64,000 nt of DNA from Candidatus Zhuqueibacterota bacterium (lineage in GTDB: Bacteria > Zhuqueibacterota > Zhuqueibacteria > Zhuqueibacterales > Geothermadaptataceae). Where the stretch lies: the NCBI GenBank assembly GCA_030950365.1, contig JAUZRQ010000040.1, positions 13,195-77,194 of the forward strand, given 5' to 3'. A program made the position numbers and the translations under genes. Under the pieces are notes generated by a model. That model was not told where the DNA came from, did not search any database, and worked only from the letters and a program-made list of their open reading frames with translations. Below are positions 24,977-48,031 of this stretch, in pieces. How positions within the stretch are numbered: the stretch's first letter is position 1; every line of letters begins with the position of its first letter.

Positions 24977-25749
24977 GGGAGTATCTCAAGTATCTCTTTA
25001 CCATAACATTCTTGGTCCTGAATTGATCAATTTTTCTTCTATAAAAAATTTCCTGACATTCAGAAGATTCTAAACCTTACCGTAGCGAATCAGGAATCAG
25101 AATTGATTTAATCGGTTTTATTCAACAGTACCTCGTACCTCGCCCCAAGGACGTCTTGCTTTAATGGATCAATCTGTCATGTTCCCTGGTAAGCTGAGTT
25201 GCCTGTGGAAAGAGTTGACGGATTCGACAGACCTTCTTCATGGGCAAAGATATTAATTCATAGCTTTACGCACAATTTGTTGCGGCCTGTCCTGCTTATA
25301 AATATAATAACGCACATAAGTGATCACCATAAAGCAGCAATAGGCCCCAAAAATGTTCATACGAGTCAAGGCAAACTCCTTTTAATCTTCAGACTTGCAT
25401 CATTGAATATAAACATTGTAGTTGAGATTCAATATTCTCCTGCATATTTAGTAAATATCCGGATAGTCTTCCAAATAGCGGATCATCGCCTGATCCTAAA
25501 AGCCGCTATCCCTGATTACAAACATAGCTTCATGAGTAGGATATTGTTGACTGATGGCTCGGACCAGGCGATCACCCGCATGCCATCACTGGCATGATTA
25601 GAATCATAGCTGCCAGGAGGCCCCAATTCTTTACCTTGTTAGGTGTGTGTTTTTGGTTTTTTATGTGAATAACGTAATCCTCTATAATATCATACGTTAG
25701 CCTCCAGAAAGATGTGTTAGAACTATAATCGATCCGTGTAAGTCAAACT

Positions 25750-27057
25750 TTAAGCCGCAATCTCCTCCTCGAATTGTTCTTCTTCTGTTGAACCTTTCAA
25801 CGCCGTAGTTGACGATTGGCCGCCACCAATCGCAATTTGCACCTGGTCGAAATATCCCGCACCTACAAATTTTTGATGCTTTATGGCACTATAGCCACAG
25901 GTAGTCTCGAGTTCAAATTCGTATTCCTGCAGTTTGGAGTAAGCAGCCATGCCCTGATCTTTGTACTGACGCGCAAGGTCAAACATGGCAGTGTTAAGAC
26001 TGTGGAAGCCAGCCAGAGTCACAAACTGAAATTTGTACCCCATTTCACCTAGTTTTTCCTGAAATTCTGCGATAGTTTTATCGTCTAAATTTTTCTTCCA
26101 ATTGAAAGATGGCGAACAATTATAAGCAAGCAGTTTACCGGGAAATTTTTCATGGATTGCCTGAGCGAATTCACGTGCTTCGCCCAGGTCTGGTTTGGAA
26201 GTTTCACACCAAATCATATCGGCATAAGGTACATACGCTAGAGCTCTGGCGATGGCATAATCAAGGCCGCCTTTTATTCGGAAAAAGCCCTCGGTAGTTC
26301 TTTCACCGGTGATGAACGGCTCATCCACCTCGTCAAAATCACTTCGGATCAAGCTGGCTGAATTGGCATCGGTCCGAGCAATGAGGACGGTGGGGACCCC
26401 CAGAACATCGGCTGCAAGCCTTGCCGCAACCAACTTTTGCACAAACTCCCGCTCCGGGACCAGAACCTTGCCTCCCATGTGACCGCATTTTTTAAGTGAA
26501 GAAAGCTGATCTTCAAGATGGACGGCCGCAGCTCCGGCTTCAATCATCGCTTTCATTAATTCGAACGTATTTAGTGGTCCACCAAAACCGGCTTCCGCAT
26601 CGGCTACGATGGGGGCAAACCAGGAAGTATGGCCATTGTCATTCAAATGACTAATCTGGTCTGCACGCGCAAGGGCATTGTTGATCCTGCGGACAAGGTT
26701 GGGCACACTATTTACCGGATATAGACTCTGATCGGGGTACATATGATAGGCGTTATTGGCATCGGCAGCTACCTGCCATCCGCTGATATAAATGGCTTTT
26801 AAGCCTGCTTGCACCTGTTGAATCGCCTGATTGCCTGTCAAGGCTCCCAGCGCCCGAACGAACGGTTCGGTGTTTACCAGATTCCAGAACTTCTCCGCTC
26901 CCATGCGTGCAAGTGTATATTCAATCTGAATCGAACCTCGAAGTCGAACTACATCGTCGGCCGTGTAAGGACGAACAATGCCCCGCCAGCGAGGATTCTT
27001 AGCCCAGACATTGTTTAAGGCATGAATTTGTTGTTGCTTATCCATAATTTCCTCCAT
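25750..27057 (-). CDS. aceA: isocitrate lyase
   Basis: 435 aa with the signature [13 protein letters not shown], plus [19 protein letters not shown] and TDANSA motifs. Confidence 0.95.
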
Positions 27058-27060
27058 GGT

Positions 27061-28677
27061 TTAATTCAAATGTTTATAGGCAACAATGGTTAAGAATTCG
27101 GTAAAATGATTGTTTTGCACAAGCTCAGCGAGAATTTTTCTGGCAGTTTCAAATTTGCCCTGTGCATATCTTTCTTGCCCAATAACCTCTTTTATTTGCT
27201 TTAATTCCTGTGCAAGCAATTTGGTGAAAAGCGCCTCATCAATTTTTTCACCAGTTGCCAGTTTTGCCTGATGGTGATGGAGCCATTGCCAGAGCTGGCT
27301 TCTCGAAATTTCAGCCGTGGCGGCATCTTCCATCAGATTATCAATAGCCACTGCACCAATACCACGAAGCCAGGCTTCCAAATACAGAATAGCCACGCTT
27401 ATGTTGTTCCGGAAGCCATCTTCTGTTATATGCCCCTGCAAACTTCTTACATCCAGAAGGTCATTTGCTGTGACCTGAACATCTTCCCTTAGCCTTTCTT
27501 TTTGATGAGGTCGATCACCAAGGATGGCATCAAAAGCCTCTCTGGCGATCGGCACCAGATCCGGATGGGCAACCCAGGTGCCGTCAAAACCATCACCGGA
27601 TTCCCGCTCCTTGTCCTCTCGTACTTTCGCCAACGCCATTTCATTCATCAGTGGGTCCTTACGATTCGGGATAAAGGCAGCCATACCACCAATCGCATGC
27701 GCTCCACGTCTATGACAGGTTTGCACCAGAAGTTCCGTATAAGCGCGCATGAAAGGTACCGTCATGGTAACCTGGGCTCGATCCGGTAGTAAAAATTCGG
27801 GATGGTTTCGGAATTTACGAATCATGCTGAAAATGTAATCCCAGCGTCCTGCGTTTAGTCCGGCAATATGATCACGAAGTTCATATAAAATTTCTTCCAT
27901 TTCAAAGGCTGCCAGAATGTTTTCAATAAGTACCGTTGCTTTGATGGAGCCTCGTGGCAGCCCCAGTTCATCTTGAGCTAGATTAAAGACTTCGTTCCAC
28001 AGGCGGGCCTCCAGATGATTTTCTAATTTTGGCAAATAAAAATAAGGGCCACTGCCGCGATCGATTAATTTCCTTGCATTATGAAAAAAGTAGAGTCCGA
28101 AGTCAAAGAGAGAGGCGGATATGGGCTTACCATCCACCAACACATGCTTTTCAGGTAGATGCCAACCACGTGGCCGAACCAGCAGGGTGGCAACATCATC
28201 GTTTAATTGATACTGTTTCCCCTCTGGACTGGTGTAAGTGATAGTACGGTCAACCGCATCGCACAAATTCAATTGCCCCTGCAGGCAGTTTATCCAGGTT
28301 GGCGAATTGGCGTCCTCAAAGTCGGCCATAAAGGCATTGGCACCAGAGTTAAGGGCATTGATCATCATTTTGCGATCAACCGGACCAGTAATTTCCACTC
28401 GCCGGTTTTGTAAATCATCAGGGATGGGGGCAACTCTCCATGTAGTATCTTCTCGAATGCGACGAGTCTTTTCAAGGAAGTTTGGCATGGTACCCGAGTC
28501 TATCTCAGCCTGAATTTCTCTCCGTCTTTGAAGTAATTTTTCTCTTGTCTCCCCAAATTCGCGTTGCAACTTTGCTATGAAATCAAGGGCTTCCGGTGTT
28601 AAAATACGTGCACAGTCAGAAGTAAACTCCCCGATAAGTGTTACACTTTCTAATATAGATACTGCGCTTTGTGACAT
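27061..28677 (-). CDS. aceB: malate synthase A
   Basis: 538 aa, the length and layout of malate synthase [53 protein letters not shown]. Only 3 nt upstream of aceA. Confidence 0.93.
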
Positions 28678-28793
28678 AGAACTCCTCCTTAGGCTCTCTA
28701 TCCAAATTTTTATGGGAATTGAGAGAAGTCAGAACAACGCTTTTGGCATTCTCACCTCCCAGGGAATGGACTGTTTTGATCAAGCTGGTTGGA

Positions 28794-28822
28794 AAGTTAA
28801 AAAAGGGATGAGAAAATGTCAA
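28794..28822 (-). promoter_or_regulatory. candidate sigma-70-type promoter for aceB-aceA
   Basis: On the minus strand, TTGACA (28822-28817), a 17-nt spacer, then TAACTT (28799-28794). It lies about 110 nt upstream of the aceB ATG. Confidence 0.4.
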
Positions 28823-28829
28823 GAAAAAT

Positions 28830-28843
28830 AGCGAAAATTCGCT
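28830..28843. promoter_or_regulatory. inverted repeat AGCGAA-AA-TTCGCT next to the aceBA -35 box (candidate operator)
   Basis: AGCGAAAATTCGCT. Further TTCGC half-sites at 28853-28861 and around 28895-28915 (tatttcgctgatagtgaaata), in the divergent aceB/regulator intergenic region. Confidence 0.3.
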
Positions 28844-29031
28844 AAAAAATATAAATTCGCCAATAAAGTAATTACGCAAATTATGAAAATTTTAGGTTAT
28901 TTCGCTGATAGTGAAATAATTTGTGGATTTTTGTGGCGTGGAATCTTATTTTATTGTTTAAGAATTCTGCTGAGGTGTAAAAAAGGGCAAGATACGTTGA
29001 AGATTACCAAATAGAAGTGGAGAGGATAAAA

Positions 29032-30540
29032 ATGGATGGAGATAACGTTCGTCTGATCCTCGGTTTCAAAGTGAAGCAATATCGTTTGAAACAGGGCTTA
29101 TCTTTAAAACAATTGGCTGCCCGCACGGGGCTTTCCATATCGTTTTTAAGCGAGATCGAGAAAGGGAAGAAATATCCAAAGCCTGAGAAAATTGTCCTTT
29201 TGGCACGGGCATTAGGTATTTCATTTGATGAATTGGTCTCAATGAAGATGGGAGAAGAGCTAGATTCCCTGAATGCGGTTTTAAATTCTTCTTTGCTGAA
29301 AGAATTTCCGTTTCATTTTTTTGGTATTGCACCGGGGGATTTTCTCGATTTGATTACCAGTTCACCGCAAAAAGCCGGTGCTTTCATCCGTACAATTTTA
29401 GAAATTGGCAAAGCGTATGACATGCATGTGGAACATTTTTATTTTGCTACTCTACGTTCGTATCAAAAACTCCACAACAATTATTTTGAAGAGATTGAGG
29501 TAGCAGCGGAACGCTTTGTACGCGAACAAAAATGGGATATGAATCCACCAATAAAAAAAGAACGTTTTCAAAAGATTCTTGAAGCGGACTATGGTTATGT
29601 AATCGATGAACAGACCCTAAACCAATATCCTGAATTGCAAAAATTTCGGTCGGTTTGGGTTGACTCGAAGCCCCCGAGGTTATTGGTGAATGAAAAATTG
29701 CTAGCGTCACAAAAAGCATTTATTTTAGGAAGAGAAATTGGTTACAATTATTTGGGACTCAAAGAAAGGGCTATCACGTCCTCATGGCTCAAAGTGCGAA
29801 GTTTTGAACAGGTACTCGACAATTTTAAAGCTTCATATTTTGCCGGTGCCCTCATGATAAATCGTGACCTGCTTTATGAGGATATATCAAAGTTTTTTCA
29901 AAATCAAAGTTGGGATGGGGAGGCATTTTTAGCTATGATGCGACGCTACGACGCCACACCCGAGATGTTTCTTTATCGTCTAAGCCAAATTATCCCCCGA
30001 TTCTTTGGATTAAAAGAAATTTTCTATTTGCGTTTTAATAATGCAGCAGGAAGCCAAAAATATCGCCTTACCAAAGAACTCAATATGTCCAGAGTCAATG
30101 TGCCTTACGGTATCGGCTTGAATGAACATTATTGTCGACGTTGGCTATCTATTAGTTTGCTGAACAGGTTAGCCGAGCAACAGAAACAGAGGAATGCAAA
30201 ATTTACCATTATTGCTGCTCAACGTTCTAAATTCATAGAAAGCGATGCAGAGTTCTTTACCATTACCCTGGCTCGTCCATTGGCACTAATCGAAGGGACA
30301 AATTCAAGTATGTCGATTGGTTTTTTGATGAACGATGATTTTAAACAAAGGGTACGTTTCTGGAACGACCCTAAAGTGCCAACGGTACGGGTTAATGAAA
30401 CCTGCGAACGCTGTGGTTTGAACCGTTCCGAATGCAGTGAGCGAGTGGCTCCACCTGAAATTTATCAACAGGTACAAACCCAGAAAGTGAGAGAGAAGGT
30501 TCTTGAAGAGATGCTTAAAAATTTCGACGCGATTCCGTAA
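29032..30540 (+). CDS. XRE-family regulator of the RamB/PrpR (short-chain acyl-CoA-responsive) type
   Basis: ORF 29017 (GTG); I prefer the ATG at 29032 after GGAGAGG. N-terminal HTH LKQGLSLKQLAARTGLSISFLSEIEKGKKYP, a long C-terminal domain, and the Cys cluster NETCERCGLNRSEC. Divergent from aceBA, as RamB-type regulators are in actinobacteria. Confidence 0.65.
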   Translation: MDGDNVRLILGFKVKQYRLKQGLSLKQLAARTGLSISFLSEIEKGKKYPKPEKIVLLARALGISFDELVSMKMGEELDSLNAVLNSSLLKEFPFHFFGIAPGDFLDLITSSPQKAGAFIRTILEIGKAYDMHVEHFYFATLRSYQKLHNNYFEEIEVAAERFVREQKWDMNPPIKKERFQKILEADYGYVIDEQTLNQYPELQKFRSVWVDSKPPRLLVNEKLLASQKAFILGREIGYNYLGLKERAITSSWLKVRSFEQVLDNFKASYFAGALMINRDLLYEDISKFFQNQSWDGEAFLAMMRRYDATPEMFLYRLSQIIPRFFGLKEIFYLRFNNAAGSQKYRLTKELNMSRVNVPYGIGLNEHYCRRWLSISLLNRLAEQQKQRNAKFTIIAAQRSKFIESDAEFFTITLARPLALIEGTNSSMSIGFLMNDDFKQRVRFWNDPKVPTVRVNETCERCGLNRSECSERVAPPEIYQQVQTQKVREKVLEEMLKNFDAIP

Positions 30541-31494
30541 AGATTTTTGTCATTTTCTTGATCAAACCCGTTTACGGTTTCCTTGGAAGATTTTACTTTG
30601 TTTTGAAGTATTCACATTACCATAAAATAATAAAGAGTGCTCTGATGATAGGCTAAGCGCTAAACGGTTGGTTGGTTTCAGCATTTTCACAGAAGGGCTG
30701 GATTTGAGCAAAATTTAAGGTTTTCGGGAACGATTGGCGCAGACCGATCTTGTCGACGACGAGTTTGCAGCAATGATTGAAGCGGTTCAATAATAGGGCT
30801 ATCATTGGGCTCGGGGCAAGATAGCGGTGAACGATGCAACGCTTGTGTCGGCCTGTCGGAGACCGTCGAAGGAGAATGAGCGGTCATGCTTGCAAACGGA
30901 GTCGGATGCGCGTACAGCCCCAAGGCCAGCAAATTGGATTTCGCCTAAGGGGGATATGTGGGGGGCAATGATGAGCTGGGGTTTGGAGAACACGCTTGTG
31001 TTACGGTTGCAAAGGTTTATGATTTTCAGGCGAATGATACTCGTTTGAAGGATCCAGATCAGGTAGTTTTGTCGATCTGACGAATGACCGTCCTATGCGA
31101 TTCCTGTCGTTTTACATTTGTGGCGTCCATGCAAAAAGGCTTGACCATGATGTGGCCAAAATTTTAACGCCCCTCAATGGCCTCCCAGGTTAATTGAATC
31201 GCAGAACATGGGAGCTAAAAGAAAAATAAAGAGTTCGTCAAAGCTCTTTTATGCAAGAGCCATTGATTCAGATTTGCATGAAGCAAAAATTCTGGTTAAA
31301 TTACATATTAACAAATTTGTAATTCTAACTTTTCTATTTTGTAAGAGCTGCATAGACAATTTTGAAATTTTACCGAATCGAGTCCCCAATTTTCTCCAGT
31401 TTTAAACGAGAAGTCGTAAACATCATCTACTTTATCCCACCATTATAGCCTTCTATTTTTCAAGCAATTGCCTGTCATCACGCTGAGGAGCTTT

Positions 31495-31521
31495 TGATGA
31501 ATTTCTCGCTGCATTTCATCA
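31495..31521. promoter_or_regulatory. 7-bp inverted repeat just upstream of the sigma-54 promoter
   Basis: TGATGAA-N13-TTCATCA, ending 13 nt before the -24 element. Confidence 0.3.
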
Positions 31522-31533
31522 AACGGTTTCTTC

Positions 31534-31549
31534 TGGCATTTTAATTGCT
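31534..31549 (+). promoter_or_regulatory. sigma-54 (-24/-12) promoter
   Basis: TGGCAT-TTTAA-TTGCT against the consensus TGGCAC-N5-TTGCW. GG and GC are spaced exactly 12 nt apart. It lies 108 nt upstream of the ATG at 31657. Confidence 0.7.
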
Positions 31550-31656
31550 TTAGGTACTGTGCCCAACAGGATGGACGACCAGAGCATCGTCTCAGGGAAA
31601 TTGGGGTTGTTCAATTAAGCTGTCTAACACGCACTGCAACCAGGAAAGAGACGACC

Positions 31657-33372
31657 ATGAGGAATCGTCAACCACGGAAGGATGGGATTCGATTTTTGGT
31701 TTTTGGGCTGTGGTTGCTCGGAATGATGGGTGGCCTGCAGGCGCAGGGCTATCAAATCTGGAATTCCGCTGATCGACAGTATCCCTGGTCCTCAGAGATC
31801 AATCCAGCGATTCTGCCTTTCCATAGCACGCAAATTTCGTTTGGCCTCAAGGTTTATCATTTCGGGTTTCTGCCGAATAGCGCTTTCGGTATTCGTGAAA
31901 ACCGCATCAATGCCAGTTTTCCGTTTTATTTGCCTTACGACATCGCCATTGGCGGGGCTTTGCGATATTTCAGCGCCGGACTGTATTCGGAAGTGGCGGC
32001 ATCGGTACTTTTGGGTTACGAAATCTGGCCGGCTTTGTCCATTGGCGCGAAGATCGGGCTTGAGCGTCGCGGTTTTCGTGCCGGAGATTTTGTGGGCTTC
32101 GATCCCAACGATCCCCTGCTGAAACGCGGTCTGGCCACGGTAAACCTCAACCTTGGAGTCGGGGCGTACTACGAAATGGACAACTGGCGTTTCGGGCTTG
32201 GTGTGGATCATGCCAATCGCCCGAATGTCGGACGACTGAACCAGGCCATTTATCCCCGTGAAATCTCGGCTTCGATTGCTTATCGGTACGGCAACATCAC
32301 CCCAACGTTGCTGATCCGAGATGATGGCGTGCGCTGGCGATTTGGCATGATCATCACCATGACGAAAAGCTCAGTCGGACAACTGCGCCTTGGCTACGAA
32401 CACTCCATGCCGATTAAGGTTGAAGCGCAACTTAACCTCAACCGCAACAGCCGTCTTGATTATGTCGTGGACCTGCCGAAGGAAGGCACGCGCGGTGCAT
32501 CGGCGGGCACGCAGGAATTGATTTATACACATATTCTCGGGCGGCGCCCGGAAATTGGCGAGCCGGTGATCCTGTTCACCACCAACAAGCTGGAAATTCT
32601 GGAAGAAACGGTGTACCGCAGCATGACGGCCGACCTGCGTATTGAAGAACTGCGCGCGTTTCCGGAACTTATTCCTGAATACATGAACACTACCGAACCT
32701 CATAATGAGAACATGCTGGTTGTGGTCGCCGGGCCGCTGAACAAATTTGAAACCAGAGAAGGTCGGCTCGATCGCCACCGTCGTTTGGCTAAAAGTATTG
32801 CCAAATATCTGGAAACAATCCCCACGCTTAATGCCTATCTGTTGGCTGAAGCTAGCACCTTGAAGGACGCACGTGAGATTCAGCGCGCCGTTGCGCGTCT
32901 AACAGCAGAAGCCACTCGCGTACAAATTGTCAAGCTGGTCTCCGGTAAGGGAAAATCCGATTTCCGAGGCTTTCAGCCTGGGCGAATCAGCATCGAGCGC
33001 AAAAAGCCGAAGCTATCGGCCAGCGAACTTGGAATTTATCTTGAGGTTCCAACCAAGACTCGCAAGACGCTGCACTGGCAGATGCGTATCTTAAATGCCC
33101 GGAATGAGCCTGTTGCTACCTTTTTAGGTAGCGGCAGACTGCCATATCGACTCACCTGGAACTGGCGCGACGACCGCGGCCGGCTGGTACAGCCCGGACG
33201 ATATATTTGCGATTTGCGGATTATGACCACCAGCGGCCGTGAAAGACACGTGGTATCCAAGCCAGTACAGGTTACCCTCATCCGTCGGCATGTGCGCATT
33301 CATTTCAAAGGCGACCCAGAATTCAAAACCTCCCAAACCGAGGAAGAAAGGTTTTCGTCCGGCGAGTTGTAA
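31657..33372 (+). CDS. outer-membrane protein: PorP/SprF-like beta-barrel N-domain plus C-terminal FlgD-Ig-like region
   Basis: Signal peptide (FLVFGLWLLGMMGGLQAQ). SEINPAILPF and GVGAYYEMDNWRFGLGVDHANRPNVG resemble PorP/SprF family blocks. The C-terminus LTWNWRDDRGRLVQPGRYICDLRI is FlgD-Ig-like. Confidence 0.5.
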   Translation: MRNRQPRKDGIRFLVFGLWLLGMMGGLQAQGYQIWNSADRQYPWSSEINPAILPFHSTQISFGLKVYHFGFLPNSAFGIRENRINASFPFYLPYDIAIGGALRYFSAGLYSEVAASVLLGYEIWPALSIGAKIGLERRGFRAGDFVGFDPNDPLLKRGLATVNLNLGVGAYYEMDNWRFGLGVDHANRPNVGRLNQAIYPREISASIAYRYGNITPTLLIRDDGVRWRFGMIITMTKSSVGQLRLGYEHSMPIKVEAQLNLNRNSRLDYVVDLPKEGTRGASAGTQELIYTHILGRRPEIGEPVILFTTNKLEILEETVYRSMTADLRIEELRAFPELIPEYMNTTEPHNENMLVVVAGPLNKFETREGRLDRHRRLAKSIAKYLETIPTLNAYLLAEASTLKDAREIQRAVARLTAEATRVQIVKLVSGKGKSDFRGFQPGRISIERKKPKLSASELGIYLEVPTKTRKTLHWQMRILNARNEPVATFLGSGRLPYRLTWNWRDDRGRLVQPGRYICDLRIMTTSGRERHVVSKPVQVTLIRRHVRIHFKGDPEFKTSQTEEERFSSGEL

Positions 33373-33449
33373 ATCTATTGAACTGAGCAATTATGCTTTG
33401 AATAAAAGACATGACAATTATTCCATAATCAACAATGGTGGAGAGTCCA

Positions 33450-34394
33450 ATGGTCATGAAATACTACTTTACAAAACTGAAGTGGCATTACCTGGCAATT
33501 CTGGTGGTTGCCGGTTTGATAATTGGTTCGATTTCGACCTCCCAAGCGGTCAACAAACGAAAGCAGGCGAAGGCGAAAACGACTCAGAAGGCGGAAGCGA
33601 AGCAGAATCAGGATGGGGCCGAAAAGGAACTTTCGGCGTGGGACATCATCGAAATGACCGACTGGCTTTTCTGGCCGTTCGTATTGCTTACCGGGACGGG
33701 GATTTTCCTGCTGAGTTACAAAGGCTTACAGGAATACCGTGAAAAGTCCCGGGCAAAATGGCTACTGGAGCAAAAAATCGGCTCCGGCGACATTCGGCGT
33801 GTGATTCGCATGGTGCAGACCAGCCAGCCCAACCGCGCTTCACGGCTGATGCACCAGATGATTGCGACGTTCAATAAGACCAAGCGCGCCGAGCCCATTG
33901 GCGATGACATTAACGCCTATTTGAATGCCGAACGAGACTCCTTTGAGACCTTCAACCGTGTGCTGGGCTTTTTGTCCGACACCGCCGGAGCACTAGGCTT
34001 GCTCGGAACGGTGTGGGGCATTTTTGAAACCTTCCACGCTGGCCGGCTGGATGGTCCAACCATTTTGCAAGGCATGAGTATTTCGTTAGTGACTACCCTG
34101 GTTGGTCTCATTATTAGCTTGTTTCTGAACATGGGCGCGACCGGCATCTTTGCCTTCTTCAATCGTCAGTTAAACATGCTGGCCAACCGGGCGGAAGAAT
34201 TGCGTCAGGCGTTGCTATACCTTGAGGCCAAATCCATGCGGGCGGAAAAGGTAACAGAACCCGAACCGCGCGTACGTACGGTGAATCCCGATCTGACCAT
34301 GGCAGCCGGCTCGCATCACCGCCGGCCAGCCGCGGAAGTTCCGGTCACCGAGGTGGAGTCGGCGGTGGTCGAAGAAGGAAACGGGTATCTCTAA
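33450..34394 (+). CDS. MotA/TolQ/ExbB proton-channel family protein
   Basis: ORF 33435..; ATG at 33450 after GGAGAG. Core LGFLSDTAGALGLLGTVWGIFETF...ILQGMSISLVTTLVGLIISLFLN. Unusual K/A/Q-rich insert after TM1 and an extended acidic C-terminus. Confidence 0.85.
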   Translation: MVMKYYFTKLKWHYLAILVVAGLIIGSISTSQAVNKRKQAKAKTTQKAEAKQNQDGAEKELSAWDIIEMTDWLFWPFVLLTGTGIFLLSYKGLQEYREKSRAKWLLEQKIGSGDIRRVIRMVQTSQPNRASRLMHQMIATFNKTKRAEPIGDDINAYLNAERDSFETFNRVLGFLSDTAGALGLLGTVWGIFETFHAGRLDGPTILQGMSISLVTTLVGLIISLFLNMGATGIFAFFNRQLNMLANRAEELRQALLYLEAKSMRAEKVTEPEPRVRTVNPDLTMAAGSHHRRPAAEVPVTEVESAVVEEGNGYL

Positions 34395-34420
34395 ACCACG
34401 CAGGGCGTGAGGAAAAGGCC

Positions 34421-35290
34421 ATGAAATCCATGATACAGTTGATAGCGACATCGTCCGCCGGCAGGTTGGTCCCAATCGCAGCCCTGTATGCGATGCTGAA
34501 TCTGAACGCACCGCTGTATGCCGGCAGCGAAGCGTGCAAGAGCGGCGAAACCTCGGTGGCGGGAAGTAGCGGCAATCCGCAACTCTGGATGGAAAAGCCG
34601 CAGATGGAGCTTTTGGCCGGCACCGCCTTCGAGCTGCGATTCCACGTCGGCGAGCCGAACAATCCGGTGCGCAGCCTGTTCGGCATCAGCTTCGAATTGC
34701 GCTATTCCGATGACCAGTACCTGGAATTTGCGCAGCCAACCGAGATATTGAAGGGTGATTTTCTAATGCCGGATGTGTACACCTTTATCCGCCATGAACA
34801 GGACCGCAAACTGATTTCGCTGGCCGTGAGCCGCAAACGTGGCGCACCGGGACAGAATGGTGACGGCGTGATTTTGCGCCTGCCGTTGAAACTGGCCGAC
34901 GAAGCGCCGGAAGGCTGGCAGGTATGTTTTCAGGTCAGCAACATCACGGCCAACGATTCCGTGGGCAATCGCATCGAGATCGACGCCGGGCCGATTTTGT
35001 GCCTGAAGGTCATCGCACCGGAAATCGATGTGGTGCCCAATCCGTTTACGCCCAATGGCGATGGTTTCAACGATCGCGTGCGTTTCAAGCGCGATGGCGG
35101 CATTCCGTCTGACTGGGTGATTTTGATCATGGACCGATCCGGCAGGATCATCCGTCGCCTGACCGATGGACGGGATGTCTGGGACGGCAGGGATGCGCAG
35201 GGACGTCCCATGCTGCCCGGCGCCTATCTGTATAGCATTCGCAAGGGCGATCGCGTCATCCGGCGCGGCCTTCTGGGACTGATTCGGTGA
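34421..35290 (+). CDS. cohesin-like domain protein with T9SS type B C-terminal sorting domain
   Basis: C-terminus PNPFTPNGDGFNDRVRF...ILIMDRSGRIIRRL...WDGRDAQGRPMLPGAYLYSI...GLLGLIR matches the gliding-motility-associated (type B) CTD pattern. The N-terminal module (FELRFHV...GISFELRYSDDQYLEF) is cohesin-like. Confidence 0.75.
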   Translation: MKSMIQLIATSSAGRLVPIAALYAMLNLNAPLYAGSEACKSGETSVAGSSGNPQLWMEKPQMELLAGTAFELRFHVGEPNNPVRSLFGISFELRYSDDQYLEFAQPTEILKGDFLMPDVYTFIRHEQDRKLISLAVSRKRGAPGQNGDGVILRLPLKLADEAPEGWQVCFQVSNITANDSVGNRIEIDAGPILCLKVIAPEIDVVPNPFTPNGDGFNDRVRFKRDGGIPSDWVILIMDRSGRIIRRLTDGRDVWDGRDAQGRPMLPGAYLYSIRKGDRVIRRGLLGLIR

Positions 35291-35366
35291 CGCATCGTCA
35301 TGCAGCACAAAGCAGGTACAATCCGTGGGATGATGGGAACGTGAAGGATGGCATAGGGACGACACC

Positions 35367-38282
35367 ATGAACGGCACCAATAACAAACATCGTCACCATG
35401 CGCTTGCGCGCACGTTCAACCGAAGCCGGATGGCCGCCTGGTTGGGCATCCTGGCTCTAATTTTTGGCATGACCGGTCCTGGATTGGCACAAATGGATGC
35501 CGGAATCGCTGCTGCCGGCCGGATTAGCGCGCTGTCGGGCGTGGCGAACCAGCTCAAATTGCATTATAACCGCGTGAACGCCACCGGCTTCCCGGTGATT
35601 GTTTCTTACGTGGTCGTGCAAAACGATTCTGGTTACAACATTGGTGATTTGAACGAAAACCATTTCGTGGTGCATGAAGACGGGGTCCGCGAATTGCCAA
35701 TCAAGGTCGAAGAGTTGACCGATTCCATTGGCGTGACGGTGGTGCTGGTGATTGACCGCAGCACCAGCATGCGCGGCCAGCCCATTGTGGATGCCCGGAA
35801 TGCCGCCGTGACATTTGTACAGCTCATGAATAAAAATGACGAAGCGGCCGTGGTCAGTTTCGCCAGCAAGGTGCGCACGGATTACACCTTTACCAACAAC
35901 AAGGATTCGCTGATCGCGGCCATCCAGGGCATCAATGCCAAGGGCGGCACGGCGATTTTCGATGCGTTGATTCATTCGGCCAAACTGATCGAGACGCGGC
36001 AGGGACAACGCGCCATCATTCTGCTGACGGACGGACATGACAAGGATAGCAACAGCACGTTGCAGGAGGCATTGAACGCGGTGAGGCCCACGGGCGTGCC
36101 AGTGTTCACGATCGGCCTGAATTTGGGGCGTGGCAGTCAGGAAGAACGCGTATTGCAGGACATCGCCGCCGCCACGGGCGGGCGTTACTACCGCAGCCCC
36201 AGTTCGGGTGATCTCAATGATATTTACAAAGCAATTTCGGCCTTGCTGCATCATGTGTATCGCATTACGTACACCACGCACAATCCAGCGCGCGATGGCA
36301 CGCTACGGCATGTCCGCATCACCGTCAATGCGCTGGGTTCGACATCATCCGATACGGCCAGCTACCGCGCACCGCTGGACCTGGTGACCTTTGCGCTGGC
36401 CTCCAGCGATGTGCCGGTGCCCGGCCGTACGTTCACGGTGCAATTGCGCATCCCCGACTCCAGTGTGCCGGTGTATGAGCTGCGACGGATGACATTCCGG
36501 CTGAAATTCGATGCGCGCTACCTGCGGGTGCCCAATCCGCTGGCGCAATCGGTGCGCGTGAGCAACCTGTTTGGCAGCGCCGGGGAGCACCGGGTGCAGG
36601 TCAGCGTGGATCAGCAGCGCGGCAACATCGATATCACGGTGGAGAAGACTACCGGTGGCCTTATCAATGGATTTGGCAAGCTAATGCAATTCACGTTTCA
36701 GGCCGACACCAGTCTGCCGGACCGTTTCCCGCTGGTGTTTTCGCTGCAGAATTTCCAGGCGTTCAATCGGGACAATGTGGCCATCCCAACGGAGACGGTG
36801 CCGTTGACCCTGCGGGCGTACGGCTACGTGACTTTCGCGCTGAATTCCGGGGATGTGCTGCGGCCGGGGAAGCCGTTTCGATTGCAACTGGAAATTCCGC
36901 CGGACACCAAGTCCCTGCCGGGACTGCAACATTTGAGCTTTATCATCAAGTTCGATCCCACTTATTTGAAAGTGGCCGATCCGCAAAACCAGGCGTTGCG
37001 GGGCGGCGTGCTGTTTGGCAGCAACTCGGAATTTCAACTCGATTACAGCGTGGATGCAAACCAGGGGCTGATCAATATGACGCTGTCCAGAAAGGCCGGC
37101 TTTACCATGGTGGCAGGACGTGGGGCCCTGGCCGAAATGCGGTTCGATGTCCGCTGGGACATGCCGGACAGCACGGAAGCCGCATTCGAAATTGTGAATC
37201 TGCTGGCCACGGACAGCCTGGGATGGAATTTGCCGGTGCAGTTGCGGCATTACCGCGACTGGAGCAACGGCATGACCGTCTGGCCGGGGGACACCAATCA
37301 CAACGGGGCGGTGGAGCTGAGTGATGTGAACATGCTGGGCATTTATTGGAGCATCCAGGGGCCGGGACGGCCGGATGAACCCGACCCGCTGGCCTGGAAG
37401 CCCCAGTATAGTGCCCGCTATCCAAAAAAATGGGCGGCGCACGCCGATGCCGATGGCAGTGGCAGAATCGACGAGCGCGATTTGATACCGATCGGACTGA
37501 ATTGGGGTAAAAACGTGCAGGCAGGATTTTATAAACAAAATGGAAAATCATTGTGGAACGAACCGCCCACCCCACAGGGTCGCATTGCGGCCTATTTAAA
37601 GCGGTTCGACGACAGTCGAGAATATCGCATTGTTCTCGAATATCAAACCGGAGAAAGCCAGGATTTGATGGGCATCACCTTGCGGCTACGCTATCCTGAG
37701 CGAACTCGGGTGGTGAGTGTGGAGCCCGGAGAGCTGTGGGCTTCGCAGCCGCTAATGCTGGTGCAGGATATTCCGCAGGAGCAGTTGCTGGCCATCGGGC
37801 TGATGCAGCCGGCTACGTCTACCAAGGCCATGTCCGGCGCGGTGCTGATGAGCATCGCCGTGGACCTGCCCGAAGCGGCGCTGAAAGACCTGCTAACGTT
37901 TGATTACATCGCTCTGGTCAATGCCGCCGGACAGGCCGTGGAAGTGCCCGTGTCGGAAGCCTGGCGCGATGGCAGCGCAACGGCCGTGCAGACTTTTCAG
38001 GTGTTGCCGGCTTATCCGAATCCATTCAACCCGTCCACGCGGGTGCGGTTTGCGCTGCCGCAGGCAGGAGAAATTTGGGTACGCATCTTCAATCTGCGCG
38101 GCCAGGCCATTCGCTCCGACCGCTGGCAACAGCCCATGCCCGGATTTTATGAATACCGCTGGAACGGGCAGGATCAGCACGGGCAGCCGGTAGGGTCCGG
38201 GGTTTATTTCGCCCATATTTATGTCAAACTGCGCGACGGGCAGACCTATCGGGCCAAACAAAAATGGACGCTGTTGAAATAA
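35367..38282 (+). CDS. large surface protein: vWA domain, three cohesin-like modules, dockerin-like EF-hand pair, T9SS type A C-terminal sorting domain
   Basis: vWA at aa ~122-300 (VVLVIDRSTSMRG...GGTAIFDAL...ILLTDGHD). Duplicated modules VTFALASSDVPVPGRTFTVQLRIP...FRLKFDARYLRV and VTFALNSGDVLRPGKPFRLQLEIP...FIIKFDPTYLKV. Ca-loop-like DTNHNGAVELSD and DADGSGRIDERD. C-terminus YPNPFNPSTRVRFALPQAGEIWVRIFNLRGQ...SGVYFAHI. Probable start is Met22 at 35430 (MAAWLGILALIFGMTGPGLAQ). Confidence 0.8.
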   Translation: MNGTNNKHRHHALARTFNRSRMAAWLGILALIFGMTGPGLAQMDAGIAAAGRISALSGVANQLKLHYNRVNATGFPVIVSYVVVQNDSGYNIGDLNENHFVVHEDGVRELPIKVEELTDSIGVTVVLVIDRSTSMRGQPIVDARNAAVTFVQLMNKNDEAAVVSFASKVRTDYTFTNNKDSLIAAIQGINAKGGTAIFDALIHSAKLIETRQGQRAIILLTDGHDKDSNSTLQEALNAVRPTGVPVFTIGLNLGRGSQEERVLQDIAAATGGRYYRSPSSGDLNDIYKAISALLHHVYRITYTTHNPARDGTLRHVRITVNALGSTSSDTASYRAPLDLVTFALASSDVPVPGRTFTVQLRIPDSSVPVYELRRMTFRLKFDARYLRVPNPLAQSVRVSNLFGSAGEHRVQVSVDQQRGNIDITVEKTTGGLINGFGKLMQFTFQADTSLPDRFPLVFSLQNFQAFNRDNVAIPTETVPLTLRAYGYVTFALNSGDVLRPGKPFRLQLEIPPDTKSLPGLQHLSFIIKFDPTYLKVADPQNQALRGGVLFGSNSEFQLDYSVDANQGLINMTLSRKAGFTMVAGRGALAEMRFDVRWDMPDSTEAAFEIVNLLATDSLGWNLPVQLRHYRDWSNGMTVWPGDTNHNGAVELSDVNMLGIYWSIQGPGRPDEPDPLAWKPQYSARYPKKWAAHADADGSGRIDERDLIPIGLNWGKNVQAGFYKQNGKSLWNEPPTPQGRIAAYLKRFDDSREYRIVLEYQTGESQDLMGITLRLRYPERTRVVSVEPGELWASQPLMLVQDIPQEQLLAIGLMQPATSTKAMSGAVLMSIAVDLPEAALKDLLTFDYIALVNAAGQAVEVPVSEAWRDGSATAVQTFQVLPAYPNPFNPSTRVRFALPQAGEIWVRIFNLRGQAIRSDRWQQPMPGFYEYRWNGQDQHGQPVGSGVYFAHIYVKLRDGQTYRAKQKWTLLK

Positions 38283-38294
38283 AGGATTCGGGCG

Positions 38295-38726
38295 ATGGAA
38301 CACAAACGCGAGTATGTGGAAAGCAAACGCAACAATTTGATGATCCGTCTGATCGACATCGTGTTCATCCTGCTGTTCGGATTTATCGCGGTGTCGCAGA
38401 TCAGCAATGCGGAGGCCATCGATCCGGCCAAAAGCACCGAAGCCAAGCAGGGGGCGCCCGACGGCGCGGTGATCCTCATCGTGGGCGTGCATGCCGATGG
38501 TATGTTCACGGTGGATCGGGATTCGAAAAGATTTCGCCGGTTGCGCGACCTGCGGCGCTATCTGGTGGCGCTGCAATCCGAACTGCGCGCGGAGGGGAAA
38601 GACCTCGGCGTGCGCATCCGGGCCAACTGGGACGCGCCGACCCGCTACAGCATGCAGGTGGCGCGCCTCTGCCGCGACCTCGGCATTCCCAAAGGGTTGG
38701 ATGTGGTGCGGGTGCTGGATAAATAA
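38295..38726 (+). CDS. ExbD/TolR family biopolymer transport protein
   Basis: N-terminus NNLMIRLIDIVFILLFGFIAVS (single TM typical of ExbD/TolR), with a periplasmic domain of about 100 aa. Confidence 0.8.
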   Translation: MEHKREYVESKRNNLMIRLIDIVFILLFGFIAVSQISNAEAIDPAKSTEAKQGAPDGAVILIVGVHADGMFTVDRDSKRFRRLRDLRRYLVALQSELRAEGKDLGVRIRANWDAPTRYSMQVARLCRDLGIPKGLDVVRVLDK

Positions 38727-38782
38727 CAGGACAAAAGGAGCAAGCCCATGTCCACGATCTGGATGCATGGAGGTGGTGAGAC

Positions 38783-39178
38783 GTGAATAACAATCGCCTG
38801 ATGATCCGCCTGATCGATGTGGCGCTGATCATTCTGTTGGGATTTATCGCCATCAGCCGGTTGAAAACCGAGTACGTGGATTTGCCCGCGCCCGGCGATG
38901 CGGAGCCACCACGGATGCGGATGCACATGGCGGATTTGCACGTATACCGCGCCCGTTATGTGCTGGTTGACGGCCGCCGCAAAAAGCAGGTGCGCGATCT
39001 CGATAGCCTGGAACGGCTGCTGCAACGAACCAAAACGGTCTATCGACAAAAAGGCGCGAAACTGGTGATGAACATTCAGCCGCATCGATCCAGCATCATG
39101 CAGGACCTGATCGATGTGCTGGATGTCTGTCAACGGAACCGAATTGAGAAGAACCTGAACTATGACCGCATTAACTGA
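38783..39178 (+). CDS. ExbD/TolR family biopolymer transport protein (second copy)
   Basis: GTG start preceded by GGAGGTG. NRLMIRLIDVALIILLGFIAIS. Paralog of the preceding gene. Confidence 0.8.
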   Translation: MNNNRLMIRLIDVALIILLGFIAISRLKTEYVDLPAPGDAEPPRMRMHMADLHVYRARYVLVDGRRKKQVRDLDSLERLLQRTKTVYRQKGAKLVMNIQPHRSSIMQDLIDVLDVCQRNRIEKNLNYDRIN

Positions 39179-40247
39179 ATACATCGCGAAGCAGGATCGA
39201 CTGCTGAATCTGTCGCTGGCCATCACCGTCGGCGTCCTGTTGCTGATTTTTATCATTATGCAATTGCTGTCGTTCATTCCGTTACAGATGGATGACGACC
39301 GTGAGAAGCAAATGGTGGTGCAGGAACTGGTAAAACTGCGCTTTGACAAGAAAAAACAAAAGGCGCCGGTGCAGAAATTCAGAGGCCGTACGCGGCAGAA
39401 CACCCGGCCGAAAAAATCGGTGAAGGTGTCGCGCAAAAAAGCCTCCAGGCGGTCGAAGCCACAGGTGAATGTAGAAAAGCTGTTACAGGAATTCAAATCC
39501 AAGAAACTGGTGGCCAACAAAACCACCAACCGCCGCACCGTGGTGAAAGTGCCTTCGCCGCCGAAATCCGGTGTGAGTTTGAATGTAAAGCGGCAAACGC
39601 GCGGCGTCACCGATAATTCGTTGAAGACGCCGTTCAGGAGCCGGCCGGCGCGCCGACCCAGTGGCAGAAAAGCCGTTGCCGGGGTGGTTTCGGGTGCGGC
39701 GGTGGAGGTTGGTGCGGTGTCGCCAAATCTGGCCAACGTTACCTCGGTCAACGGCTCCGGTTTTCGATCGGCCAAAGGCATGCGCGCCACGCGCAGTGCG
39801 GGCAGTGGCGCCGGCAGTGCGCAAATATCCCTGCCCACCGGCGAGGGCGGCGGCAGCGAGGCCACTATCGATCTGCATGCATTGATCAAATGGATGAAAG
39901 AACATCCCGGTCCCATTCCCAAGTTAGTGGCGCACGAGATGGGCCATGAGCGCGGCGACCTGTCCTCAAAGGTGTCGTTCCGTTACCGTGGCCGGCAATA
40001 TACATTCTTTTTGTCATGCAATGAGCACGAATTATTTTTACGTGTGTGTCTTGTGGAAGGCAACGATTTCATTTTACTCAAGGATAGCGGCATTCAGGAA
40101 GAGAGTCACTTTCTCACTATCGGTGATGTCATCCGCCGCCGCGGCCGCATCGAATCGTTGATTAGCTCGCGCAAAGCTCCTGGCGATCGCGCGGATCAGT
40201 TTTATTCGATTTTCTGGGCGTGGTGGCAAACGGTAGAGAAAAAATAG
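39162..40247 (+). CDS. TonB/TolA-position membrane-anchored protein with K/R-rich linker and unrecognised C-terminal domain
   Basis: Overlaps the ExbD stop by 17 nt. N-terminal TM (LSLAITVGVLLLIFIIMQLL), basic tract (KKKQKAPVQKFRGRTRQNTRPKKSVKVSRKKASRRSKP...), and a Ser/Gly/Ala-rich linker. The C-terminal ~130 aa has no TonB_C-like motif that I can see. Confidence 0.45.
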   Translation: MTALTEYIAKQDRLLNLSLAITVGVLLLIFIIMQLLSFIPLQMDDDREKQMVVQELVKLRFDKKKQKAPVQKFRGRTRQNTRPKKSVKVSRKKASRRSKPQVNVEKLLQEFKSKKLVANKTTNRRTVVKVPSPPKSGVSLNVKRQTRGVTDNSLKTPFRSRPARRPSGRKAVAGVVSGAAVEVGAVSPNLANVTSVNGSGFRSAKGMRATRSAGSGAGSAQISLPTGEGGGSEATIDLHALIKWMKEHPGPIPKLVAHEMGHERGDLSSKVSFRYRGRQYTFFLSCNEHELFLRVCLVEGNDFILLKDSGIQEESHFLTIGDVIRRRGRIESLISSRKAPGDRADQFYSIFWAWWQTVEKK

Positions 40248-40298
40248 CAGGTTAAATTTGAGCAACAAAAAACCGACCGGAACCGAACGTTAGCGGCA

Positions 40299-41819
40299 AT
40301 GAACAACAAAGGGATGGCGATTATGAAGGTGAGGGATTACCGCTGGTTTGCGCTGCTGAGCTTTGGTATGGCGCTTATTCTGCTGTCGGCCTGTGCTTTG
40401 CCGCTGCGGCGGCCCACGAAGCGGGTGCTGCGCGTGCCACCGGGCCTTGATAGCACCACGGTGGTGCAGGCCAATCGGCTGGCCAATGAGAATTTCGTTT
40501 CGGCACGCCGAGAAAACGAAGCCAGAAAACACGCCGAGGTCGGCAAAAAGAGCCTGAAACGCGTGGATGATTTCTGGGCGTATCTTGAGCAACGCGTCGA
40601 GCGCAATCCGATGTCTGCAAGCGAGCAGGCTCAGTTCGACCGCGAGATGGCCAAGGGCGCGCAGGCGCTGCAGCGCTGGAAAGCGCTGACCAAGAATGGC
40701 ACTGATGAACGAGCCTTTCAGCGGGCGCTACAATATTGCTTGAAAGCGCAACAGCACCTGGAAACCGCCGTGCGGCTGAATCCGTTTGACAAAAATGCCC
40801 GTCTGTTGCTGGCGGTGACCTACTACAACCTGCAAAACATCTTCGGCCAGGATCAAAACTTCAAGAAGGCCGTTGAAATTCTGGAGCGCTTAACCCGCAT
40901 TGAAAAAGGCGAGCATGACCTGTTCCGGCTGCTGGCCGAAAATTACATGCAGCTCAAAGACTACCGCCGGGCGCTGGAAAATTTCGCCCGCGCCGAAACC
41001 GTGCTAATCAAAACCAGCTTTGAAGCGCCACCGGATACCGCCACGCTGTTCTATTACGCCTACATGCAGGGCGATATGTACGCGCGGCTGTACAATGCAC
41101 CGGCCGCGGTGAAAAAGTTCGCCATGGCCAAAACTTATGCGCGCACGGAGCAGGAGCGCAAGGATGTGGAAAACTACCTTGCGTGGATCAACTGGGATGG
41201 CGGCAATATTCGCGCGTCCGAAGTCTGGGATGAAATTCTGGCGCTGGAAGCGAAGAAATCCTACGACCGCATGGCGCGGTTATGCAAAAAACTGCTGCCG
41301 AAGTTACAAACCAAAAAGGCCAAACTGGCGGTGCATCACAAACTGGCCGTGGTCGAATTTGAGTTTCTCAATCGCAAGGAAACGGCGGTGGAGCGCATGA
41401 AGGCCGTATATGAGGCGCTCGGGGCGGTGGCGCAGAGCCGAAACCGGCCGCCGGAAGTGCAGCAGTATCTGGACACCTATGGCGCCATGCTGTACCGAAT
41501 GGGCGTGGATGCGCTGGAGCGACAACAGAAAAAACTGGCGCTGGCCTATTTCACCAAATCCATCGAGTTCGACTGGAATCAGGTGGCTAAATCGTACGTG
41601 GAGATGGTCACGCTGCTCTGGAACAGCCCGGAAAAAGCGATCTATTTCGGTGAAAAAGCGCTGGCGCATGCCGAGGGCGCCTTGTCGAGCCGGGAATCCT
41701 GTGAGTTGCTGTCCCTCATGGTGAAGGCGCACAAAAGCGCCGGGCTCTACGACAAAGCGCGTGACTATTTTCAACAATGGAAACAGTGTCGCATGGAAAA
41801 CAACGTCGGGAGTGAATGA
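40299..41819 (+). CDS. TPR-repeat lipoprotein
   Basis: Probable start Met9 at 40323 (MKVRDYRWFALLSFGMALILLSACALP, lipobox). The remainder is TPR-like helical repeats. Confidence 0.7.
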   Translation: MNNKGMAIMKVRDYRWFALLSFGMALILLSACALPLRRPTKRVLRVPPGLDSTTVVQANRLANENFVSARRENEARKHAEVGKKSLKRVDDFWAYLEQRVERNPMSASEQAQFDREMAKGAQALQRWKALTKNGTDERAFQRALQYCLKAQQHLETAVRLNPFDKNARLLLAVTYYNLQNIFGQDQNFKKAVEILERLTRIEKGEHDLFRLLAENYMQLKDYRRALENFARAETVLIKTSFEAPPDTATLFYYAYMQGDMYARLYNAPAAVKKFAMAKTYARTEQERKDVENYLAWINWDGGNIRASEVWDEILALEAKKSYDRMARLCKKLLPKLQTKKAKLAVHHKLAVVEFEFLNRKETAVERMKAVYEALGAVAQSRNRPPEVQQYLDTYGAMLYRMGVDALERQQKKLALAYFTKSIEFDWNQVAKSYVEMVTLLWNSPEKAIYFGEKALAHAEGALSSRESCELLSLMVKAHKSAGLYDKARDYFQQWKQCRMENNVGSE

Positions 41820-42469
41820 TGAAAGGAATTCGTTGTTTGATTCTGGTGTTGATCGGCACGGCCGTGGCGCCCATCGTCTCCGCGCAGACACAATCGGGAG
41901 TGCTTGTGGATCAGGTGCTCATGCAGAACGCCACGGTCACGAATCCACGGCTGATCCGCTTTTTCGCCGAGGATTTCATGATCCCGGAAGAAAAAATCGA
42001 CAAGATGGTGATCTACGATCTCACCGGTGACGGTTTCGGTGAAGGAGATCTGGCGCGCACGTTCCCCGGTGGCAAGTTTTATCTGATCACGCCGACCGAA
42101 AACGCCCAGCGCATCATGAACGGCTGGAGTTTCGGCGGCAATGTCAAGTTTACGGCGGACAGCGATGATCCACCAGAGCTGTTCGAGAATGCGCCGGATT
42201 CTGTACGCGCCATGGGCGGTATTTTTGCCGCCTTGCTGCGGGGCCTGCGGCGCAATTACAAAGGCCAGCCGATCAAATTGCATCTGGAACAACGCAACGG
42301 CGTGACCTCGGTGGAACTGTGGGGCTACGATCCGCGGTTGATGATCTATCAGCCGCCGCCGGTCAACAAAGTCCCCGAGCAGGTGCCGGTGATGAAGCTG
42401 ATTTACCTGGAAAAGTCCATCGTCGATTCGGTGTTTACTGGCGAAGTCCGGCCGAAGGGTGGATTTTAG
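41816..42469 (+). CDS. secreted hypothetical protein
   Basis: 4-nt overlap with the upstream stop. Signal peptide MMKGIRCLILVLIGTAVAPIVSAQ. No recognisable domain. Confidence 0.6.
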   Translation: MMKGIRCLILVLIGTAVAPIVSAQTQSGVLVDQVLMQNATVTNPRLIRFFAEDFMIPEEKIDKMVIYDLTGDGFGEGDLARTFPGGKFYLITPTENAQRIMNGWSFGGNVKFTADSDDPPELFENAPDSVRAMGGIFAALLRGLRRNYKGQPIKLHLEQRNGVTSVELWGYDPRLMIYQPPPVNKVPEQVPVMKLIYLEKSIVDSVFTGEVRPKGGF

Positions 42470-42590
42470 TGAAAATTCTTTGAAGCCATGAATTCACGCG
42501 GGCCAGGCACAGGATGTGGCCAGCGTGTTGGCAGCTACGATTTTTCCCAGGCAGCTCCCGTACTATTGTTGTAATCCCTCCCCCCATGCG

Positions 42591-42620
42591 AGCGAGCCCG
42601 GAACACGGGCTCGCTTTTTT
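42591..42620 (+). terminator. rho-independent terminator closing the 31.6-42.5 kb operon
   Basis: AGCGAGCCCG-gaaca-CGGGCTCGCT followed by TTTTT. Confidence 0.85.
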
Positions 42621-42695: not shown

Positions 42696-44063
<1,368 letters not shown>

Positions 44064-47960: not shown

Positions 47961-48031
47961 TTAAATCAAAATGACCAGCGCAAAAAGTGCAAATAATTTC
48001 AAATTCCCCAAAATGGACATCCGTGCTCATC

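Follow-up and report, generated by a model that had tools for sequence, protein, structure and literature searches.

Which promoter drives the nine-gene envelope operon (g1 to g9) carried by the 64,000-nucleotide stretch of Candidatus Zhuqueibacterota DNA analysed here (the window), and which regulator switches it on? An earlier note on this stretch had recognized a sigma-54 promoter just upstream of g1 and had assigned its activation to the two-component system encoded convergently behind the operon. The answer proposed here retains the first half of this view and not the second: the element at 31534-31549 is very probably a genuine sigma-54 promoter, because its motif is kept at the same place in all informative related loci amid DNA that is otherwise unalignable, and the neighbouring kinase-regulator pair is probably not the dedicated activator of the operon. 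The window belongs to a metagenome-assembled genome of candidate division KSB1, the name borne by a protein 100% identical to g1. The features concerned are collected in Table 1.

The motif TGGCAT-N5-TTGCT is present exactly as described, with its GG (31535-36) and its GC (31547-48) separated by 12 nt and with a single mismatch, C to T at -21, to the pattern TGGCAC-N5-TTGCW. It is intergenic, lies on the sense strand and ends 107 nt before the ATG of g1 (31657), a gap given previously as 108. Exact matches to TGGCAY-N5-TTGCW number two in the window for 0.41 expected, and two or more were obtained in 3 of 100 shuffles; when one mismatch is allowed, five matches are observed for 7.2 expected, i.e. 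there is no enrichment. Scoring with a sigma-54 weight matrix, which the earlier note had advised, places the site second among the ~128,000 positions of the window, the matrix being an approximate one. The top-scoring site is a perfect TGGCAT-N5-TTGCT at 5169-5184(+), within a TPR-repeat gene (4534-5793), which is presumed to be a chance occurrence. Judged on the window alone, the promoter call is suggestive, not compelling.

The decisive evidence comes from the related loci. When genomes were scanned with aligned g1 homologues, 11 loci proved orthologous (38-70% identity) and 8 paralogous (20-27%), and an exact-protein look-up added two more operon loci, L021 (84% g1 identity) and L028 (41%); L029, in which a run of N stands directly upstream of g1, was left out, and the comparison bears on 14 informative loci with g1 identities of 38-84%. 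The strict pattern TGG[CT]A[CT]-N5-TTGC is found at the same place upstream of the g1 orthologue in 14 of 14, and the GG and GC, whose loss from orthologous loci had been named beforehand as an argument against a promoter, are both kept in every one of them. The orthologous sites read TGG(C/T)A(C/T)-N5-TTGC(A/C/T) on the sense strand of each locus, with a lineage consensus of TGGTAT-N5-TTGCC followed by TGA. In the alignment, the string TGG.A......TTGC is invariant while its intergenic surroundings are unalignable between distant loci. The distance from the motif to the start codon is ~84-160 nt in the 11 loci of the genome scan, once the arithmetic is corrected for the position in g1 at which the tblastn match begins, and the motif of L028 lies 273 nt before the annotated g1 start. 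Among the 8 paralogous operons, no site scores 10 or more.

Could the -24/-12 match nevertheless be a chance or non-promoter element, the operon being transcribed from elsewhere? The equally good motif lying in the coding region at 5169 and the missing enrichment of one-mismatch matches would agree with such a reading. Against it, of the 15 strict matches among 546,604 positions (13 orthologous loci, both strands), 13 are the g1-upstream site, which leaves a background of 2, or ~0.001 per 250 nt; the site of L028 is the sole strict match in 18.9 kb; and the motif recurs in about ten independent lineages with its place and strand unchanged. We consider a chance match to be extremely improbable. 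The pattern of conservation is the one expected of a functional -24/-12 promoter, an interpretation that is strongly supported by these comparisons and for which we see no other reasonable explanation.

In the usual geometry of the -12 element, transcription starts ~12 nt downstream of the GC, which would place the start near 31560, in agreement with the position predicted earlier. No consensus sigma-70 promoter is found on the forward strand between 31200 and 31656. The nine co-oriented genes (31657-42469, +) are separated by short intergenic gaps, and tblastn shows that their order is kept across the orthologous loci, the VWA and CHU_C genes in the middle varying in number. Given the lack of a sigma-70 consensus in this interval, the short gaps, the conserved order and the terminator after g9, it is plausible that g1 to g9 form one transcription unit. 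A scan of the whole window against Rfam at the gathering thresholds gave no match, and no known RNA element accounts for the long region upstream of the operon. In the leader, a hairpin GACGACCATGAGGAATCGTC (31650-31669) encloses the g1 start codon and is identical in L021 and L001; a leader motif ACGCACTGCA (~31623-31635), situated ~20-30 nt before the g1 start codon, is common to the window, L001 and the distant L003 and L004, and reads TGCACTGCA in L021.

Comparison by k-mers of the 400-nt regions that precede the operon promoters revealed one common block, represented in the window by the element at 31316-31345, whose family consensus is TTTTGTAATTCnAATTTCAAAyTTGTGA. Of the first 13 loci, nine hold a single copy each of its 16-nt core TTTGTAATTCNAAYTT, always on the same strand as the promoter and ~170-220 nt upstream of it (~220 bp in the window), and no further copy exists in 415 kb; variants of the element are present in L028 (~193 nt upstream of the promoter) and in L002. 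The element shows direct TTSWAA-like repeats and has no dyad symmetry. The earlier suggestion that the AT-rich region 31200-31490 could hold enhancer or IHF sites is borne out as far as a conserved element is concerned, the IHF reading being rejected by eye; where repeated dyads conserved in orthologous loci had been looked for at the time, the one block that the k-mer comparison gives is this direct-repeat element. NifA-type (TGT-N10-ACA), CRP and ArcA-like readings were also discarded, by eye only as for IHF, for wrong spacing or symmetry. As judged from its letters and its placement, the element could be a candidate enhancer for a separate activator, the site of another factor or a part of a second promoter.

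In the last two of these readings the element would be no enhancer, and the operon might be served by tandem promoters. The second-promoter reading has a precedent in the remFG-sprCDBF gliding operon of Flavobacterium psychrophilum, which encodes the SprB adhesin and SprF and whose sigma-54 promoter was mapped and then verified by mutating it (PMC9723704); there it is accompanied by another promoter, which has a TAnnTTGY box. A sigma-70-family promoter of this type would be compatible with the direct rather than inverted repeats of the element and with its reading TATTTTGT or TAATTTGT in the window, L021 and L001, and TACATTTG in L002. However, most loci read AAACTTGT, without the conserved T; the best-conserved part of the element is the TTTGTAATTC block and not the box; and the spacing from TTTG to the box is, by our count, 13-15 nt and not ~20. 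The reading as a second promoter is weakened because the Bacteroidetes-type -7 box (TAnnTTTG) shows no enrichment in front of the genes of the window (2 observed for 1.5 expected) and because no sigma-70 consensus is present at the element. We hold it to be unlikely on the whole that the element serves as something other than an enhancer, though this reading keeps a real share of the probability.

The 7-bp inverted repeat at 31495-31521, noted earlier as abutting the promoter, is indeed present, but both of its arms are broken in L021 and L001, the nearest relatives, and about 0.5 repeat of this kind would be expected by chance in such a region according to our estimate; it is probably fortuitous. 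Furthermore, when the window is compared with L021, a 90%-identical locus, it carries a low-GC insertion of 6.3 kb (24983-31305, GC 41-47%) that encodes isocitrate lyase and malate synthase besides an HTH_3/peptidase-M78 regulator and small open reading frames (ORFs); this insertion resembles a glyoxylate-shunt island gained by horizontal transfer. It stops 10 nt short of the conserved element, which is left intact, and therefore the conserved control region is 31306-31656.

The second half of the question concerns the activator. The regulator at 42696-44063 is, as the earlier note had it, the only enhancer-binding protein of the window, with an intact GAFTGA loop, and its gene does lie directly past the operon terminator, in convergent orientation. 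That this kinase-regulator pair is the dedicated activator of the operon, binding upstream of 31534, could moreover be argued from the convergent layout kept in the window, L021 and L022, and from the Omp85 protein and the lipoprotein of the module, which match the envelope theme. But these three genomes are the closest ones and the only ones in which the regulator adjoins the operon convergently: the adjacency is lost in each operon locus below ~70% g1 identity that extends past g9. Thus L002, L009, L010 and L011 reach 0.9-1.6 kb past g9 and lack the regulator, expected ~230 nt after that gene, and no match to the enhancer-binding protein, the kinase, DUF4390 or Omp85 was obtained in the flanks (up to 10 kb upstream of g1) of 19 operon loci. 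Conversely, the modules of the regulator orthologues in L024, L030 and L032 adjoin unrelated genes with no operon beside them, and the contig of L023 ends 1.5 kb past the regulator with no operon in that stretch; the regulators of these four loci are 64-70% identical to that of the window. L031 was rejected as an orthologue, its regulator being a paralogue in another context. A comparison of homologue counts, intended to show a wider distribution for the regulator than for the operon, was dropped because the figures (at least 122 for g9, 21 for g1) reflect search sensitivity.

The module also possesses control signals of its own. A second sigma-54-like promoter, with GA instead of GC at -12, lies at 49790-49805 on the reverse strand, 78 nt before the probable start of the lipoprotein gene; the ORF of this gene is listed to 49765, and its likely start is M19 at 49711. 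The pattern TGGCAY-N5-TTGAW precedes the module in L022, L023, L025, L026 and L027 and the Omp85 gene in L024, while the corresponding sites read TGGCAC-N5-TTGAC in L030 and TGGTAC-N5-TTGTG in L032, so that the promoter is conserved in eight other loci, Calditrichaeota-like genomes included. Upstream of it, a dyad of the pattern TCACYACA-N2-TGTRGYGA matches the window once only, at 49893-49910; L022, L025, L026 and L027 have kept it, L024 and L030 hold a CCACA..TGTGG core and L032 a degenerate copy. A metagenome scan with the lipoprotein alignment gave 3 short loci only, of which 3 of 3 carry the promoter and 2 or 3 the dyad. This dyad is likely to be the binding site of the regulator, as predicted from its form and position. 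Since a promoter with a dyad ~90 bp upstream is the classic NtrC-type layout, the regulator would most likely exert a positive autoregulation on its own operon.

No such dyad accompanies the envelope operon. Upstream of g1 in 13 loci, neither a dyad within 3 mismatches nor a core at the equivalent place was found, and the core pattern is matched only twice, at -193 in L002 and at -421 in the window, where it falls within the inserted island; the inverted repeat next to the promoter, for its part, is not conserved. The role of dedicated activator given to this two-component system is consequently not supported by the comparison, and we regard it as quite unlikely. Because the adjacency is confined to one clade and each partner is found without the other elsewhere, the operon and the regulator module are probably independent units that abut in this clade by a lineage-specific accident.

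The model that we favour combines these observations. Sigma-54 RNA polymerase would bind 31534-31549 as a closed complex, which an enhancer-binding protein, probably distinct from the neighbouring one, would remodel with ATP, thereby allowing initiation near 31560 and the synthesis of a single ~11-kb message that would cover g1 to g9 and end at the terminator. The best candidate region for the binding of this activator would be the 31316-31345 element. Independently, the DUF4390-kinase-regulator module would activate its own operon through the 49790-49805(-) promoter and the 49893-49910 dyad. We give this model as a whole a probability of about 0.75. The motifs, their conservation and the synteny are direct observations; the dependence on sigma-54, the start site, the single transcription unit, the autoregulation of the module and the role of the upstream element are inferred. 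Several points weigh against it. The weight matrix is an approximation of the Barrios 1999 consensus, the pattern counts being independent of it. An RpoN-box peptide was not found in the ~465 kb of sequence scanned, an extent too small to be informative, and the presence of rpoN in the source genome is inferred because the regulator has an intact GAFTGA. The conserved upstream element is non-dyad, lies farther out than most characterised enhancers and varies in distance by ~45 nt; it may be no enhancer. The proposed autoregulation is read from the placement of motifs, and the -12 element of the module promoter is GA or GT and not the canonical GC. Finally, the adjacent regulator may have been recruited to the operon within the close clade, a question on which the upstream DNA of that clade is uninformative because it is ~80-90% identical throughout.

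Table 1. Position and nature of the features of the envelope operon, of its control region and of the convergent regulator module.
Feature	Position	Strand	Basis
Conserved upstream element TTTGTAATTCTAACTTTTCTATTTTGTAAG, candidate enhancer or transcription-factor site	31316-31345	+	k-mer comparison, alignment
Inverted repeat TGATGAA-N13-TTCATCA, probably chance	31495-31521		present in the window
Very probable sigma-54 type -24/-12 promoter TGGCATTTTAATTGCT (TGGCAT-TTTAA-TTGCT)	31534-31549	+	sequence, window statistics, conservation
g1, divergent PorP/SprF-like outer-membrane protein, 571 aa, signal peptide, ~280-aa C-terminal extension	31657-33372	+	PF11751
g2, MotA/TolQ/ExbB-type proton channel	33435-34394	+	PF01618
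g3, secreted protein with a type IX secretion system (T9SS) type-B sorting domain (CHU_C)	34421-35290	+	PF13585; TIGR04131, 40.1 bits for a cut-off of 35
g4, secreted VWA-domain protein, 971 aa, C-terminus resembling T9SS C-terminal domains	35367-38282	+	VWA and FlgD_ig matches
g5, ExbD/TolR-type protein	38295-38726	+	PF02472
g6, ExbD/TolR-type protein	38783-39178	+	PF02472
g7, 361 aa, one N-terminal membrane helix, long basic linker, conserved C-terminal domain	39162-40247	+	sequence, hydropathy
g8, TPR lipoprotein	40299-41819	+	TPR families; lipobox-like LSAC
g9, exported protein, 217 aa, highly conserved	41816-42469	+	homologue set
Strong intrinsic terminator, 11-bp stem with 8 GC pairs, then T run	42590-42616	+	sequence
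NtrC-family response regulator/enhancer-binding protein	42696-44063	-	REC, Sigma54_activat (257 bits), HTH_8, intact GAFTGA
HAMP histidine kinase	44177-45685	-	Pfam
DUF4390 protein, gene overlapping the kinase gene by 4 nt	45682-46356	-	PF14334, 61 bits
Omp85 protein	46346-47698	-	Pfam
Predicted lipoprotein, first gene of the regulator module	48305-49711	-	N-terminus; no Pfam match
Second sigma-54-like promoter TGGCACCGTTCTTGAT (TGGCAC-N5-TTGAT), GA not GC at -12	49790-49805	-	conservation
NtrC-like dyad TCACTACA-TC-TGTAGCGA	49893-49910		88 bp upstream of the 49790-49805 promoter

The proteins of the operon are only partly covered by known families. With 35.1 bits against PF11751 (cut-off 22.3) and 44.8 against TIGR03519, below its cut-off of 90.55, g1 is by profile comparison a divergent PorP/SprF relative with an extra C-terminal half. 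The C-terminus of g4 gives weak matches to the PorU and PorZ models. In the case of g7, Lys and Arg abound in the linker, beside some Pro, and the topology is TonB-like; no TonB_C domain was detected, Pfam and NCBIfam gave no match, and the matches to PDB sequences were antibodies only, spurious hits to the low-complexity linker. The g9 protein has at least 122 homologues of 50-94% identity and is more conserved than g1. None of the 122 carries a Pfam domain, its AlphaFold2 model is mediocre (pLDDT 69.5, pTM 0.38), no PDB sequence matched it below E = 0.2 and Foldseek gave no match to the PDB at E <= 0.001; it is a conserved component of the operon without a family or fold match.

The composition of the operon varies in its middle. 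Between g2 and g5, L004, L005, L007, L008 and L028 carry one to three VWA genes fused to or preceding CHU_C type-B sorting domains, sometimes with a Por_Secre_tail protein, and this variation of the middle cassette suggests an exchangeable secreted cargo. Paralogous sets made of PorP-like, ExbB, ExbD, g7-like, TPR and g9-like genes are present in L012-L019, and also in a Caldithrix metagenome-assembled genome (MAG), with up to three copies per genome (L005, L014 and L019 come from one MAG). These sets have neither the sigma-54 promoter nor the TTTGTAATTC element and therefore point to a multi-copy machine family with differing regulation.

In the regulator module, the order Omp85-DUF4390-kinase-regulator is shared by L022, L023, L024, L030 and L032; lipoprotein orthologues head the module in all of these but L024, which is without the lipoprotein gene. 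A 125-aa ORF between the lipoprotein and Omp85 genes (47764-48141, -) has no family match and no same-strand counterpart in L022. This ORF is unlikely to be a real gene, and without it the module contains a gap of ~600 nt. The regulator reaches 480.9 against the NtrX model (cut-off 600) and 496.9 against AtoC (cut-off 714), and the best NCBIfam match of the kinase is the LIC_11548 family (272.6, cut-off 750), with no NtrY model among the 25 best matches listed and no PAS domain detected. The label 'NtrY-like' used earlier therefore reaches no curated NtrX or AtoC cut-off, and it is defended by the gene neighbourhood, because the association of DUF4390, kinase and regulator is that of the PlrP-PlrS-PlrR subset of NtrYX systems (PMC13001219). 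As in PlrPSR (PMC13001219), the DUF4390 gene lies immediately 5' of the kinase gene and overlaps it, the NtrC-family regulator comes next, and the kinase combines two membrane helices with a periplasmic domain and HAMP. Unlike PlrPSR, the module is found outside Proteobacteria, with Omp85 and a lipoprotein preceding instead of RsmB; the undetected PAS domain and the NCBIfam scores below cut-off set it apart from PlrPSR and NtrYX alike.

Classical NtrC-type sigma-54 promoters of the glnAp2 type have their GG and GC 12 nt apart, a leader of ~100 nt and an element more than 100 bp upstream. The operon promoter shares this spacing, a leader of that length and a conserved element more than 100 bp upstream; it differs in that the element consists of direct TTSWAA-like repeats and in that most orthologues read TGGTAT and not TGGCAC. 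The module promoter with its TCACYACA-N2-TGTRGYGA dyad is a close match to the glnAp2 layout, from which it departs by the GA or GT at -12.

The closest parallel to the operon as a whole is the F. psychrophilum gliding operon. In both cases a -24/-12 promoter precedes genes for a PorP/SprF-family protein and for a surface protein with a T9SS type-B C-terminal domain, in an organism of the wider FCB group, with a second regulatory element nearby and an activator that is not assigned there either. On the other hand, the present operon encodes a TolQ/TolR/TolR motor, a TonB-like anchor, a TPR lipoprotein and VWA proteins, and no SprB, SprC, SprD or Rem protein; its second element stands upstream of the sigma-54 site and fits the Bacteroidetes -7 box poorly, whereas that of F. 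psychrophilum is downstream; and the F. psychrophilum promoter was shown experimentally, whereas the KSB1 promoter is predicted by sequence comparison. For clusters that unite TolQ and TolR with VWA and TPR proteins, a force-transducing role has been proposed, their function being unknown (PMC12204202), and the operon resembles them by its one TolQ-like and two TolR-like genes beside TPR and VWA genes, but g4 has a signal peptide, a T9SS-like C-terminus and no N-terminal motor-binding helix, unlike the VWA transducers. With the Agl-Glt system of Myxococcus (PMC11761067) it shares, by gene type, an outer-membrane barrel and a TonB-like anchored protein, the barrel being here PorP/SprF-like, unlike that of Agl-Glt. 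The operon mixes features of these systems and is a member of no characterised one.

In conclusion, our observations provide a well-founded sigma-54 regulatory signal for an uncultivated phylum, for which our literature search found no published sigma-54 work, and they suggest TGGTAT-N5-TTGCC as a lineage-specific promoter consensus. They link sigma-54 to T9SS-associated surface machinery beyond Bacteroidetes, where a single validated case, that of Flavobacterium, could be set beside it. They also call for caution in assigning activators by adjacency, the neighbouring regulator having its own promoter and a predicted enhancer, and they bring two by-products, namely the conserved upstream element, which is no dyad, and the sigma-54-like promoter of the module, likewise conserved, whose -12 is non-canonical. 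KSB1, Calditrichaeota-like and 'Zhuqueibacterota' genomes possess the genes of the envelope machine, together with several paralogous sets. Could the promoter and the 30-bp element control a gliding or adhesion device in which a proton-driven TolQ/TolR/TolR motor and a TonB-like anchor would be coupled, by way of a PorP/SprF-like barrel, to swappable T9SS-secreted VWA adhesins, under a sigma-54 activator that would recognise direct repeats? We offer this as a speculation with the odds against it. If so, the machine would be distinct from those of Flavobacterium and Myxococcus.

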